A DNA stretch of 64,000 nucleotides, from contig MU271302.1 of NCBI GenBank assembly GCA_021432655.1, positions 7,303 through 71,302 on the forward strand. The letters run 5' to 3'. The notes beneath the pieces are model-generated. The model searched no databases. It saw only the letters and a list, made by a program, of their open reading frames with translations, and was not told the DNA's origin. The translations under genes and the position numbers were made by a program. This DNA comes from Atractiella rhizophila (taxonomy: Eukaryota). Each line of letters opens with the position of its first letter. The stretch's first letter is position 1. Below, in pieces: positions 1 to 9,062 of the stretch.

Positions 1-800
1 GGGTAGGAAAGACAAGTGCGAAAGATTTCCAAACCGCATCCCTGTTCTACTCTGAGGTATAGGGGAAAAAAAGAATAAGAGGTTTACTGGGTAGGTACGC
101 TTATACAGTGGTACGGAGGTTGCTTCGCAACCGTTATGTAGGGTAGAAGTACCTGATACACTCCTCCGCTTGGAAGTGGTTGTACTGTACCAGTAAAGGA
201 TGCATGCGAAACCGAAAGGTCTAATTTTAAGCGCTTGACCCCCACTACTAACTTTCTCTTCTCTTCCCTAAGTTCCTCGGCTTATCCACCGCTACCCTCC
301 ATCTTCAGTCTTGGCCTAGCTCTTCTACTTCCTCCCCAGCTTCGAAATAGCCCCCGAACCATGCAGGACACAAAGACTTTAGTCTTCAAAGTGCTCTCGA
401 CTGCGAGCGAGACACGCATTTCGACCTTAGTGGTAAGGGGAGGAACTAGACAACGTTCTAGGGTCCGCGTTGGAGTGGTCCAACGTTTAGCTGTTCCACC
501 TCTGTCAAAACGGTGGCTCGTTTAACGACCTCCTTAACGTGAAGTCCGGAAAACCAGGTTTCCTCCTCGACCTCTAAAACTCATGGACTAATGAGCAGGG
601 AGAGAAATTGAATAAGCACATGAGACGAGTCAACAAAGAGTCAGGGGAGAGTAACGAACATACGTTTAGTTATTGACTAGAGAGTAGAGTTGGTTACGGT
701 CGATAGTGGTCGTCACCACTTAGATAGTCCGAAATCTGCCGTTAGCTTGTCACAATTGTTAGTGTTTATTTAAACGAAGGCTACCTCGTTATTGTTGTCA
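1..800. other. Apparently mirror-reversed (reversed but not complemented) segment containing the 3' exons of the Zn2Cys6 gene; probable artefact
   Basis: Hand count gives ~54 TpA vs ~27 ApT in nt 1-780, inverted relative to the adjacent DNA. The plain complement read left to right gives an acceptor at nt 40, a ~95-codon open frame (DKMRLHIPFF...), a GTACGT..GCTGAC..AAG intron and a further ~55-codon exon. Confidence 0.7.
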
Positions 801-808
801 CCACTAAC

Positions 809-3130
809 GCCTGTAGGATGGAATGAGCAGCAACCAACCAGTCCCTCTCCTCCACCTCTTCGTCCGTCAACTGACCAAATGACACGCAAAGCTCCGCGAA
901 CCGCCGACGTGGGAATGCTTCAAGCAACGCATGGGCAGTCTTATCGAGATGTATGAACGTGCGGCTTCATCACATGGAAAGATTAGAGTTTCCCAGCGAG
1001 ACGCAGAGCGAGTGGAAAAGCGAACCTCTGCCTTGCCCTTTGGAGCTGAACTGTCGACAACATGACCCACGGTCGTTCCCACCCTAAGGTCACCCACTGT
1101 GAACACGGACCCTTGTTTGCTTCAAACCGGCCAACGTACTACGCAAGAACTCGTCCACCCGACTGGAGAAGATCGACGTCTTGTAGAAGATTTGTATAGC
1201 ACCCAATCCTACAAAGGCATCTTTCGTTTCCCAAAACTCTTTGTTCTCCGGATTCAGGATTATGTTCTTTTCTAGCTCCAGGAAAGCGGAGGGAGAGGCA
1301 GAAGACGGCGGAAGAGGGGTGTGGATGTCGTCTATCGGTGCCAAGGCAACTACTTAACGTTCCGCATATATTTCCAGGATGAGAGACGAACCTGCTGATA
1401 TACAGCTCGGCCAATGTGGCACACCAGATATATGTCTCTCCATTGTGATCGTGAGCCAAAACATGTGCGATCTACCTCAACCCAACCAACCAAAAAGGGT
1501 GAGAAGAGGGGATGTATGCAATGAGCAGAAGAGGAAGGAAGTTGACGCCTACCGTTGAATGTATGCCTCCCTTTCTTCTTCTGGAGCGGTGGGAGGGGGA
1601 GGTCGGGCTCGATCCAGTCCAAGTAGTTGACTGTCTTCGTTAGCAGGCAATGGCGGTATGGTGGGAGAAACGCACCATAAGCGTACACAAAAGGCGACAA
1701 GTACTGCGACCACGTTCCAATTCTCATTAATCTACAGCCAGATATTGGGTGCGATAGCTTCAGCCTCAACTGCTTGTTCTGGATCACGCAGAAAAAAGAG
1801 AATTGAACGACAGACCTGATAATAAAATACTGTGATCAGGCAGGCCCTCAACACTTCCACGATTTCCTCTTCCCCCATCGCTGCTCTTTCCTCGATTCGA
1901 GGGAGGAACTCGGTCTTCAACTCCTTCGTGATGCTATCGATCAACTCTTGTCTCCTCCCCCTCCTGTCCATCCGCCTCTTCTGCTCGTCTTTCTCCTCTT
2001 TCCCATAAAAGTACGTCTCAAAGAACTTCTTATACATCTTTTTGCTGCATGCGTACGACAGAACACACGTTCCCTCCTCCGTTTCTGGTGTGAGCCGGAC
2101 GGAGCCGTAGTATGGGGAGAGGGAGTCGAAGGGGACGGACATGAGCCCGTGTAAGATGATGGCGCGGAGGAGTAGAGGGTGTCGGAACATGTGAGGGGAT
2201 ATAGAGCCGGAAGCGGTGAAGAACAGAAGTTTGAGAGGAGGGGATGCGAGGAAGGCATTGTAAATCAGGTAGGATAGGAGGTAAGGGGGACCAAGTGGGC
2301 TGTAGGCGGTGAGGGGAAGCAGGGGACTATGTGATCGTGAGTAAGTATTGACGATTGGGAGGGTAATGTGAGTGTCGGATACAGGAGGGTGGCAGCAAGA
2401 CGGTTGGGATGCACAGGGCGAAGCGGAGGATGAAGATGGGACGCTGCGAAGCGCTTGAAGGGCGGATTCGAGGCTTTCTGTTGACCAATGAAAATCGTTA
2501 GCAACGGTGGCAAAGAGCCTGGAGGCGAAAAAAAATGTCTTTGGACTCATGATTCTCCTTCCATGTGTTTTCTGGCTCAAAATAATCAAAGAGCAGCGTA
2601 ACAAGCAAGCCGACTTTTTCTCGGCAGCAGGCAGAAGGTATACTTCGTTCCTTTGTTTGAAGAAGGATAGAAGCATTGTGAGTGCAGAAAACATAGAGCA
2701 TGGCCCCATCTTGCTAATGGAGAGCAAAGAAAGACTTCTGATCGCTCTTGCGCAGAACATTTGTAAATTTTTTCTCTCTTTAGCCTTCTACAGGGAAGAG
2801 ATCATTTTGAGTTTGGGAGTGAAGAGAAGGACAACGGATGATGCAAAAGGACTCACTAACTCTCTCCTCCAGCACCTCCAACGTCTCCTCCTCCTCCTCC
2901 TCCTCACCCCTCTCCGAGTCCATCACCCTCACCACCCTCTTCGCCTTCGTGGTACCAAAGTAGCCTGGCCGCCTCCCCCTCCCTTCCTCATACACACACT
3001 CCACCCCATACTTCACACACGCATCGCATGGCGCCGTCCCACTACATCGGACCTTCTTCTGCCTGCACGGCGCACACGAATGGTTGGGCGACAGGTGCTT
3101 GCGTTTCGAAGTAGCTGTCTCGGATGCCAT
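809..3130 (-). CDS. Zn(II)2Cys6 fungal transcription factor, multi-exon; 3' end continues into the mirrored segment
   Basis: ATG at 3130 gives MASETATSKRKHLSPNHSCAPCRQKKVRCSGTAPCDACVKYGVECVY (C-x2-C-x6-C-x5-C-x2-C-x6-C). Protein-like minus-strand exons follow (ORFs 1732-2760 and 1090-1344, and an exon at ~809-965). Exact internal exon structure is unresolved. Confidence 0.85.
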
Positions 3131-3627: not shown

Positions 3628-6600
3628 TCACAATCCATAAACAAACCTTGCATTCTCCTCCCCAACACGCAAGACCTCCGCCGTGGTCCATCTCTTTCTC
3701 TCACTTCCTCCTTTCTCCGCAATGGTCTCGTTGAACTTGTTCGCGACGAATTCAGCCGTCCAAGGTATCATGCTGCTCAAGCTGAACCACAACCGGGGTA
3801 TCGTGTGTTTCTTCCCGTTCTCATCCGTCACAACGTCCTTGGCTCCCACTTGGAGCGAGTTGGGGAGCATGTAGGGTCTGTTTCCAAACCGTCGTTAGCT
3901 CTCATTCCTCAGACCCTTAACGGGTTGGCGAAACGCCTAAGTGGATGAGGGAAAAGGACTACATACGAGTCTGTCTCGAGCAAGAACCGTGGATGGTCCG
4001 GATCCCTCCGGACAAGATGGGCGAGAACGGCAGGTGTGTTCACGTTCGAAGGGTAGGTAGTTACTCCAGTGATGCCTATCGAAGCGAAGATGTCATCATG
4101 TGAAATAGAAAGGTGAAAGAGGACGAACCAATGTATAGGTTAGGGAAGAAGTCTAGGAGGTTCTTGGCTAGTTCAACGGTGTCGGAGAAACAGTGGATGT
4201 GTATCTACCTCGTCATCCCCAAACGATCAGCCATCTGGTCAACATCGTCTGGAACGAAATTAGGCTGCCACGCCTTGAACGAGCATGTCGTCCTTCCCTT
4301 CTGGAAGAATGACCAAGTTTCTTTCCTTGCCACGTCTTTCTTATGGCACATGCACGCACTCATGATTTAACGAGAATAAGGAGGTGTCAAAGTCAATGAG
4401 TCAAGCGGAGATCACAGCTGCGTCGCTGCCCACGACTGGAAATGATCCCCCGGTTCCTCCCTGATCCGAAATTGCTTGTATCCTGCGACACTCATGCTCT
4501 TTAACCGCAAAAATAGCGTCGGATCAAATAACCAAGAGCATTCTTTGAGTCTGACTAAAAAAGCACAGCAGTTATCGAGTACTGAGTATGATCAGCTTCC
4601 AGATCCCTGTCAGAAGGAACACAAACCACGAGCAAGGGGTTATTAATCTACAAACGGGATACATCGTAAGGGGTGCCTGAAAAGCTATCCCTTAAAAGGA
4701 GGATATACCGTGAGCATAATAAGGTGAGTCCCTTCTTGCCGGCGACAGGCTTACAGCATGTCCATCACTGCCAAACCAGAAGTAAAATGAAAGTCTTTCG
4801 CAAAACCAAGATATCTTGCCAGGGGTTGAGAGGGACTCGCTTGCTCATAGCTCCGTTGAGAGCTCGCCTTGCTCTCAAGAATCCGAAGCAATGACCTCTC
4901 CAGACACAAAACGCATAACATTCTAACGAGCTTCACCACCCCAACAAACATCCCTCCCACATTCGCCATCGATTGAAAGGAGGTGCATGCGACGGTCTCC
5001 AGGACAGAGCAGAACAGGTCCACAGAGGAAGAACCATAGTCAAAGTCTCACGCTCGTTCTTATAGTCCTTCCTCGACCAATCCAGCAAGCCGTGCTTCCA
5101 TTCTGGAGGTACGCTATCAACAAGACCGCGACAGAACACAATTATGTAACCAATGAAAGTCAGATGCGCGTGGTAAATGGGGGGAGAGAACGCCCAGATA
5201 ATATTGTGCGTCAGGCTTCTCCCTCCATCTGCACATGCACATGTGGGAAGTGCGCGAAAAACGCCACGATCAGTCCATCAGAGGACCTCTCTCTCCGGTC
5301 ACCCCGACTTGGTCGAGACGAGACCGTCCGCATTACACTGGCATCATCACCGACGCATCTTTAATAGGTGTCCGTGTAGGAAGCAGGGTGTTGCAGGGAG
5401 ACTAAGCAAAGGGGTAACAAGCCTCTCCCTCGTCTTTTGCGAGGATAGTACATTTCCCCCTTCTATAGAACGATAGGCCAAGCGTTTGGCGAGATAGAGG
5501 TTAGGCATGCCCTTATGCTTGCGCTCCTGCGTAATAGCACAACATCTTCATTGGGACTGTATGGCTGGTAACGATGAAGAGAAGATGCGAGGAGGAGAAC
5601 TCAGCATCCTCTCTTCACAGTCCAACCTCCTCAAAGGCGAGAGAAGACATTCAAAACAAGTTCCACCACAAACCCCACCACATAAAGCAAAAGACGCAAC
5701 TCACCCGCCTCTCCCTATCCTCCCCCAACTCCTCCCTCAAAATCCTCCAAACATCCACATCCGCCTCCCTCGTATGCACCGTCAGTGCCTTCCCCCTCAC
5801 CCCCCCCCCTCCCCCTCCGCCTCCCTCAAAACGCGGAGCTGCCTCCTCAACACCTCCCTCTGCACCTCTCTCGGCGAATTATCATAATGATAATCCAAAC
5901 CTATCTCGCCCAACGACACGCACTGGGGGTGCGCGAGGTGCTTCACTATCTCGTTGTGGATATTGTCGGTGTAGAGCGACGCCTCGTGCGGGTGCACACC
6001 GATCGTGTACCGGTATGCGACGCCGCCGAGGGTCCCGGAGGGAAGGAGAAGCGAGGGGAGGTATTGGTATTCGGCGGGCTCGCACCAGACGTCGATGATG
6101 TGGGAGACGCCGGAGGGGCGTAGTAGGTCGCGAGGAGGGAGGAAGGGGTGTGGTCGTATTCTTTCTTTTTCTCCTCTTTCTCGTTAGTGGGAGAGAGGTG
6201 GTTGGTGGAGGTGGTGGTGGTGGTGAGAGAGGAGGCGGAGGAGGAGAGGGTAGAGAGGAGGTGCATGTGCGTATCTATTATTCGGGGTCGCCAGGGCTCC
6301 ACTTCCTCACCCATAAAGTCTGGCGCAGGGGTCGAATACACATCTCCCTCCGCATTCCCATTCGCATCTCCATTAGAGCTCCGAAGAAGAGAAAACGAGC
6401 TGATAGTATTCCCGCCACTCTTCGAAACCACAGAGACCGGAGGAGCCTCCGGATGAAAAGAAGGCAAAAGAGGATCCGAAGACTGATACGGATACCGGAG
6501 CAAAAAAGACTCCGGACTCCGCCTCAGCACCGTCTTCCTCTTCTTCCCCTGGCTCTGACCATTCTGATTCCGATTCCGATCCTGATTCTGGTTCTGATTC

Positions 6601-6827
6601 TGATGATGTTTCGGCTTGTGGTCCTTCCTCCCCGCCGGAGTAGACCGCCCAGAGGTGTGCCGGGATGCAGGCTGGGAGGAGGCGGCGGAGGCGGAGGTGG
6701 AGGTGGACGGAGTGAAGGAGGGTGCGGAGGGGTTGAGCATGTTGCGAAGGTGGTCGAGTGCGAGTGCGGTGGAGGCGTGGCGTTTGGCGACTGTGGAGCG
6801 GATGGAGGAGAGGGTGACTCGTTGCAT
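3628..6827 (-). CDS. TatD-family metal-dependent nuclease with a long low-complexity N-terminal extension; two homopolymer frameshifts as given
   Basis: TatD motifs in order: IIDTHMH, HIIDVWCE, GVHPHEA, GEIGLDYHY, VHTREAD, IHIHCFS, FLLETDSPY, ending ENARFVYGL* at 3628. Introns at 5704-4205 (GTGAGT..TAG), ~4131-4078 and ~3965-3878. Confidence 0.9.
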
Positions 6828-9062
6828 TGAATTGAGAAATGAAAGGCGGGAAGTGTCTCCGTGGTTTAGTTTCACTATGCGAGAACTATTTGTTGGACGA
6901 CGGAGTCGGAGTGTCATGAAAGAATTTAAATGCTTTCTTTCCAGAGTGCTTGCCTGGACGTAGGTGTATCACAGGAGGGAACACGTCTACATCGTGTGCT
7001 CTTCACTCCGAATATCTCTCCACTTCTGAAGTTCTGCGTTTGAGTCTGGTCTGTACCTCTAATATGCGCTTTACTCCTTGTTTCCGCTTCTCTTTAAGGA
7101 TAGCACTATTCATCTATACTTTTCGGAGCTTTTCCTTGCTCTCTCTGGGATGGAAGTAATTCATCACTCACTACACGATGCCCCAGTACCTCGTGTGGTT
7201 TCTTTGCCTCAGCCATTCCGTACCGCTGTTTACAGATATCAGCACGTCGCGCAAGTAACATCATCAACAACTCAAGAGATCTGTCTCTGTACGACTCACA
7301 GAGAAACAGAAGTCTAGAGCAGGTCTTGTTATGTAGGAGATGCCTTGTCGTTCAGATGAGAAAAGAACCAGGGATGATGACCTTCTGAGCCTTTCTATAG
7401 TTTATACATACTGTAATGTCGGGTTATAAGGCTCAGCAGGTTGGGTGATACTGTGACCAACGAATTGAAGAGGCTTTTTACTTGCCGCCGATAAATAAGA
7501 CGACGGAGTGGGGAGAGCATGGATTGAGCATGCACGCCATAACGTATGATATCGCTGTTAACCACAGCAATCGATATCGCTCTTTCATAACCCTTCGATA
7601 CCTTTGTTTGGATCCTTCACTTCTCAACAAACTCGCCATGCGTTAATTACGAAAAAAACAAGAGCTCGGTACACGATATGCCAAACTCCACTGATTTGTT
7701 AATGAATTAGTGAATGCGATGGAGAAGAAAGGTTTCATCAACGGAAATTCTCAGGCTCCTCAGAAGATCATTTATGGTCTACATCGCCAATAATGAGGGC
7801 CTTCATAGGTTTACCAGGCAGTGTGGTTCATACCTGTCTTGCACTGGCATTCGAGTCGCATCATCACATCTAACCCAATCAGCAGGAATTACATCTCAAA
7901 CTTGAAGTGTTCAGTTCCTTTACCACAGTCCATGAAGTGAAGCATGTGTGGTGTTTCACTTACATTGCAGTGGGACCGCATGATATCAAAGAACGCCTGC
8001 CGCCTCTTTCCTTATCCAAACATGCTTCTCTTACTCTCCCTCATCCTTGTAGTTACGAGTTCGTGTACAACACAGAAGCGGGACTTCCGTCCCACCGATT
8101 CCCTCCCCTACAGTCATGGTGAATTTTGCCAAGATGACGAGGAGAAGCATTGTATTCTTCAAAACCCGAATCTCCTCAACCCTTCCTCCCGTTCGTTTCA
8201 CGGTGTGTTTCATTCTATAGCTTGACGTTGATTTTGGACTCTCAATAAAGTCGGAAGTATATTCATAACCTGAGTCTTGACTGACTTGACTCTTGATGCC
8301 TGTTCTCCGCTAAAAGCGGCTGGGAGCCCATTACTTTCTTTTGAATAGCATTCCATGATTCATGCCGAGCATGCAGTTTGTGGTTCGTACTAGAACAGCA
8401 GGCAGAGTGCATTTCCTCCTCTCCTCAACTTTGAATTCGATGTCCAACGAAAAGCAGATTAGCACACAGCGCCGTTCCCTAGGCTGAGAAGATCAGGCAG
8501 TCCTTGAACATTTGAACGAACATCCCTTTGACACTTCTTACCGTTCTCGTGGCCATGGGGCTGATCAATGAGTAATGTTATTGCTCTCTTGTGAATGCTC
8601 ACTCCTAGTCGCTGTTGTTAGGATATTGGGTCACCATAGACCCCTACATACCGAAGGACTTTTTGCGGTCATACACACGTTTCACCATACCTAACGCACG
8701 CCAGATGCCACGCCAGACCTACAGCTCCTGGGTATTACTCGAGCTTCCGTCATCGTCTTCGGTCTCTAGCTTATTCATTCACCCGTGTCCATGACGATGA
8801 TAGTCCTGCAACATTCGCCGCTGCTCATTGCTCGCAACCCTGGATTCTCGGATCCTGCACCTTGCTTACTATTCAACCTCCTTGTGCCTATTCACTCTCG
8901 AGAAGGATGGAGATTTGGGAAAACTAGGTTTTATGGAGCGGAGAATACAACGTCATAAAAGGACTCAGAGACACATCATGTCAAGATTCATATCGCCAGT
9001 AAATCAGTCACTAAATCAATCTTCAGCCACGGCAGCTTCCCTTGTTCCGTAATATTCTAGAG

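Follow-up and report, generated by a model that had tools for sequence, protein, structure and literature searches.

The first 802 nt of the window, by which we mean the whole 64,000-nt stretch of DNA that was analysed (C123:7303-71302 of a 51-Mb assembly of 1998 contigs), are written in reversed order without being complemented, whereas the DNA and RNA of the organism carry the normal letter order. The piece lies at the edge of an assembly gap, it is absent from DNA and RNA contigs, and pieces of the same kind recur at gap edges, on either side, elsewhere in the assembly. We propose that the mirrored piece almost certainly stems from faulty software during gap extension in the assembly, and is thus a data error rather than biology. 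On the evidence of its sequence, the DNA so hidden is the 3′ end of a fungal Zn2Cys6 transcription-factor gene of ordinary type and comprises its last one and a half exons.

Base order at the start of the window

The original prediction drew attention to a TpA/ApT ratio of about 2 at the start of the window. Counting by bins of 800 nt bore this out, with 56 TpA against 28 ApT in the first bin (a ratio of 2.0), while the ratios of the other 79 bins ranged from 0.34 to 0.98; the counts in window 801-1000 were 5 and 11. The sequence as given was then scored against its complement-only reading with strand-symmetric Markov models trained on window 2001-64000. At order 3 the first bin scored −27.3, favoring the complement-only reading, and 78 other bins had a mean of +20.0 with an SD of 8.7 and a minimum of −3.5; the first bin was the only one where the Markov models favored the complement-only reading. 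The turning point was near 812-815. Over 810 nt, each of the six as-given frames contained 13-16 stop codons, compared with 4 in one complement-only frame.

Sister contigs match the plain reverse

Two further copies of window 803-2400 are present in the assembly, on contigs C92 and C1277, both at 96% identity. On both of these sister contigs, the 805 nt to the left of the same junction correspond to the plain reverse of window 1-802, with identities of 98.6% and 98.8%, respectively, over 806 columns. The local alignment score to the sister was 1549 for the reverse, 27 for the sequence as given, 24 for the reverse complement and 23 for the complement, which confirmed the prediction that the first 800 nt or so are mirror-reversed. 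The extent of about 800-810 nt proposed for the piece is corrected to 1-802: alignment to the sisters places the breakpoint exactly at 802|803, and the true neighbor of window base 803 is window base 1. As given, 1-802 matched only itself and no other place in the genome; the forward form of the piece was found on C92 and C1277 only and is absent from the readable part of C123. The two sisters differ from each other at 38 of 4490 columns and each is about 96% identical to the window.

The adjoining gap

A run of 1683 N stands directly before window base 1 on C123. The opposite flank of this N run, 505 nt at C123:5115-5619, is likewise reversed where it stands (97%), and the next N run upstream has a reversed piece of 28 nt at its border. 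The two flanking pieces and the N run add up to 505 + 1683 + 802 = 2990 nt, which is the junction-to-junction distance in both sisters, although the exactness of this agreement may be partly luck because the sizes of two unfilled gaps are wrong by 107 and 24-25 nt. From the length arithmetic and the mis-sized gaps we infer that the N run is a scaffold gap. Reversal of a single block across the whole gap was considered and rejected, since it predicts that the two pieces are swapped and each is reversed in its own place. A separate feature is an 870-nt repeat (L004 3240-4109, C123), of which six or more further copies, nearly full-length and at 93-99%, exist; it is absent at the matching place of C92 and is a polymorphic insertion resembling a mobile element.

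Relative to C1277, the right-hand piece (window 1-802) has 7 substitutions and 3 single-base deletions, and the next 993 nt of normal flank have 36 substitutions. All three deletions sit in homopolymer runs, which fits a consensus built from reads. Indels of one base also occur outside the fills, as the normal left flank contains 1-3 of them in 511 nt. Transitions make up 1 of the 7 substitutions in the piece but 25 of the 36 in the flank (p 0.011), and this low share had suggested that the substitutions of the piece are errors. This reading was dropped, as the left-hand piece is not skewed in this way (7 of its 11 are transitions) and the three coding substitutions of the right-hand piece against the sisters are all silent; the substitutions are now read as real alleles. 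Because of these silent substitutions, the piece looks like genuine sequence of this haplotype in which a few consensus errors remain. The tract diverges less than its surroundings, which may explain the break of the first assembly at this place.

Read contigs at the junction

Fifteen sequencing runs shared words with window 1-2400, and the two best of them contained 0.52 of its words. Depth around the junction was taken from the Logan contigs, not raw reads, of four runs (X1-X4, representing at most three samples) over window 1-2400. It was zero over 1-800 in all 10 bins and in all 4 runs; the zero depth of X4 is weak, as this run covers only 7 of the 30 bins. X1 and X2 are DNA runs of one sample; both show a loose end at 803, and the 30 letters listed there are those of the sisters. 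X3 looks like spliced RNA, since its contig skips five GT..AG introns. Its loose end is at 808, where the exon is joined directly to the un-mirrored exon with a 46-nt GT..AG intron removed. Consistent with the original prediction, none of the Logan contigs examined across nt 800 matches 1-800 as given, and those reaching 803 continue in the un-mirrored sequence. In 803-2400, X1 and X2 contain both the window allele and the sister allele at about 1:2. The presence of three copies of the locus, together with this allele depth, suggests a hybrid, triploid or heterokaryotic strain with its haplotypes assembled apart.

The hidden transcription-factor gene

The features of the mirrored piece and of the gene that it completes are as follows. 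Hidden parts of this minus-strand gene read from left to right on the plain complement.

1-802, no strand: mirrored piece, order reversed without complementing (sister alignment, depth, N-run context)
1-40, mirrored: hidden 3′ part of a 46-nt GT..AG intron (skipped in the spliced X3 contig)
41-359, mirrored: hidden coding exon with a 1-nt deletion near 316-317 (sister alignment, profile)
360-422, mirrored: hidden putative 63-nt GT..AG intron (motifs and annotated protein P0001; no joint found in RNA)
423-589, mirrored: hidden last coding exon, stop codon at 587-589 (P0001 alignment)
590-802, mirrored: hidden sequence 3′ of the stop codon (sister contigs)
803-808, minus strand: splice donor end of the 46-nt intron, the first normally written bases (X3 loose end)
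809-2787 (end approximate), minus strand: normally written middle exons of the same gene, spanning 809-964, 1026-1083, 1140-1331, 1392-1471, 1553-1630, 1676-1731 and 1816 to about 2787 (contig joints and loose ends)
2861-3130, minus strand: probable first exon, with a Zn(2)-Cys(6) cluster (PF00172, E 4.9e-11)

The PF00172 match on the first exon scored 43 bits against a cut-off of 21. This exon is probably linked to the middle exons, as a donor at 2860 and three in-frame acceptors fit. The intron at 1472-1552 (81 nt) was read from loose ends. With the introns removed, the minus-strand frame is open from 2500, across the junction, to the 1-nt deletion near 316-317, which lies in a homopolymer run. 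Both sisters lack this deletion, and it accounts for the frame change noticed earlier near nt 310, which is thus real. The junction intron had likewise been recognized, with its length put at about 48 nt instead of the 46 nt given by the spliced contig, and the second intron (63 nt) and last exon fall where they had been placed. Two of the introns, 1732-1815 (84 nt) and 1472-1552, have lengths divisible by three, and the former contains no in-frame stop, so naive ORF calling reads through it.

Continuation of the gene into the sequence as given was tried with four acceptor options, each of which hits a stop within 1-8 codons. In contrast, the un-mirrored piece completes the neighboring gene, as had been proposed: the spliced contig crosses the junction, and the closest protein, P0001, described by its source as a 321-aa 'hypothetical protein' of Atractiella rhizophila, aligns along all its residues (1-321) to the un-mirrored window and only along 1-160 to the window as given. 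Since P0001 was probably annotated on C1277 itself, its contig having the same length (4490), it does not constitute independent support. A profile was built from seven distant fungal relatives with 27-32% identity, leaving out P0002 (100% identical). It matched the un-mirrored piece with an E value of 8e-14 and none of the six as-given frames of the piece, so that distant homologues align to the un-mirrored reading as anticipated. In particular, the last normal exon ends at profile position 436 and the match continues at position 439 in the piece. The same profile matches the Zn-cluster exon and the hidden exons in order, at positions 4-77 and 439-558. Among the seven relatives, PF00172 was detected in four and PF04082 in four; PF04082, which covers the middle region, was not detected on the pieces of this gene.

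Two neighboring genes were also observed. Downstream of the transcription-factor gene, on the minus strand of C92 (L005, about 4100-5450), is a CBM_1 gene with several fungal cellulose-binding modules and two ORFs above the Pfam cut-off. A TatD-related DNase gene with a long low-complexity N-terminal region lies on the minus strand at window 5797-6968 (PF01026, E 2.3e-15).

Recurrence elsewhere in the assembly

We examined 60 further stretches (599,616 nt) whose content was unseen when they were chosen, although the choice was not random and three came from C123. They contain 11 N runs, the shortest of 25 and the longest of 3980 letters. Three segments in these stretches score −15 or lower, each of them no more than 60 nt from an N run; a further eleven, more weakly mirror-like (−10 to −13.1), lie in stretches without N. 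Mirror-like flanks were found at 2 of 20 N-run flanks and in 5 of 1316 background windows (p 0.004). Eight of the 11 N runs, including one of 25 N, have no strong mirror flank. The three strong segments, on C40, C750 and C2, were all confirmed by reversed BLAST, that on C2 through paralogues only, at 70-84%.

On C40, 1908 nt are reversed, with 98.8% identity over 1910 nt to its sister C754, where the true gap is 640 nt. The reversed piece overshoots 1271 nt into the right flank, duplicating it, and is followed by exactly 25 N. At L020 1732-4933 (C40), the overshoot and the forward copy next to it look like a mirror repeat of 1271 nt, at 99%, which could be mistaken for a natural one. On C750, 813 nt are reversed, with 98.2% identity over 817 nt to C478 and a true gap of 804 nt, again followed by exactly 25 N. 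In an all-against-all comparison of 58 loci, every reversed match involves a piece adjoining an N run. The flanks of three gaps, on C520, C130 and the distal part of C123, are normally written; two of these gaps are the mis-sized ones mentioned above, and such mis-sizing is as scaffold estimates are.

Cause of the reversal

The original prediction read the reversal as an artefact of assembly, gap filling or data handling. The results support an artefact and favor gap filling among the three, because the piece adjoins an N run whose far flank is reversed too and because the lengths sum to the true gap. We propose that about 2990 nt were missing from the scaffold at this place and that a gap filler extended both contig ends, by 505 nt from the left and 802 nt from the right, lowering the N count by the number of letters added. 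An extension due for turning to the scaffold strand may have been complemented but left unreversed, or reversed one time too many; it would then have entered the sequence at its correct place but reading backward. The gap-extension step and the missing operation are what we infer as the cause. Among the literature listings searched, no published description of un-complemented reversal at gap edges was found, and the accessible part of PMC5689209 contains nothing relevant to such a fault.

Introduction of the reversal after assembly, through file handling or in-silico manipulation such as a re-orientation script, is improbable. Such handling would not select gap edges only, overshoot the far flank or leave 25 N. 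A case-sensitive reverse-complement bug in particular would leave the complement in place, and the piece is reversed (local scores of 23 and 1549, respectively). It is far less probable still that the piece arose in vivo, as a rearrangement in one haplotype whose order was reversed without complementing by parallel-strand copying or 3′-3′ joining. That the piece has alleles of its own, with only silent substitutions in its coding part, does indicate derivation from a real haplotype. However, X1 and X2 hold the window allele in 803-2400 and yet have zero depth over 1-800, the as-given form occurs in none of the four runs, and every confirmed piece adjoins N. Inversions and template switches yield reverse complements, and we know of no polymerase or ligase chemistry that yields an un-complemented reversal. 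Repeats were also rejected as a biological cause, as 1-1700 contains no direct repeats and only two short inverted pairs. The chance that a naturally odd composition, either TpA enrichment of the RIP type or a foreign insert, merely looks mirrored is negligible: a TpA/ApT of 2 is the classic RIP index signal too, but chance cannot give the 98.8% identity that the string, once reversed, shows to a sister contig over 806 columns.

Consequences of a probable fault in gap extension

A gap-extension fault is a data-quality matter for users of the assembly and brings no new biology. Genes at gap edges appear truncated or lost, and ORFs called in reversed pieces are spurious. About 3.6 kb of the 590 kb sampled (0.6%) are reversed. 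Extrapolated to the whole assembly, this would amount to roughly 0.3 Mb in a few hundred pieces, a rough figure based on three events in stretches picked blind but not at random, with short pieces missed. We consider it possible, though rather doubtful, that the fault lies in a gap filler in wide use, as a strand bug not reported so far, and that many public eukaryote assemblies are affected at gap edges. In that event, reversed pieces would hide genes from six-frame searches and resist read polishing, and a scan of gap flanks for dinucleotide asymmetry would find them and allow their repair in place. Any common program as the cause would mean the same hidden loss in other assemblies.

Comparison with known systems

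The hidden gene shares with fungal Zn(2)-Cys(6) transcription factors the N-terminal Zn cluster, here above the Pfam cut-off. It differs from those that carry Fungal_trans (PF04082) in that this domain was not detected on its pieces. A biological inversion or template-switch insertion resembles the piece in having the order of a segment turned between sharp breakpoints. It gives the reverse complement, however, as which 1-802 scores 24 compared with 1549 as the plain reverse, and the piece further differs in being absent from read contigs. A natural mirror repeat of the H-DNA type has a forward and a mirrored copy side by side, an arrangement not found on the readable part of C123.

Between a PBJelly-type program and another filler or an in-house script as the source of the fault, we would judge the odds to be about even. 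PBJelly presumably writes overfilled gaps as exactly 25 N. Its mean fill identity in a benchmark was 88-96%, according to the accessible part of PMC8848313; the pieces here are 97-99% identical to the sisters and exceed that range, so PBJelly run on raw reads is not a clean fit. The accessible part of its description (PMC3504050), which covers flank extension, gap reduction and overfilled gaps, mentions no un-complemented reversal. In other respects that description agrees with what we observed: letters are added from both contig ends and N is reduced accordingly, as here; over-long extensions are left unjoined, as on C40 and C750 with 25 N each; and 25 N, the smallest gap unit of PBJelly, is shared with both of these contigs.
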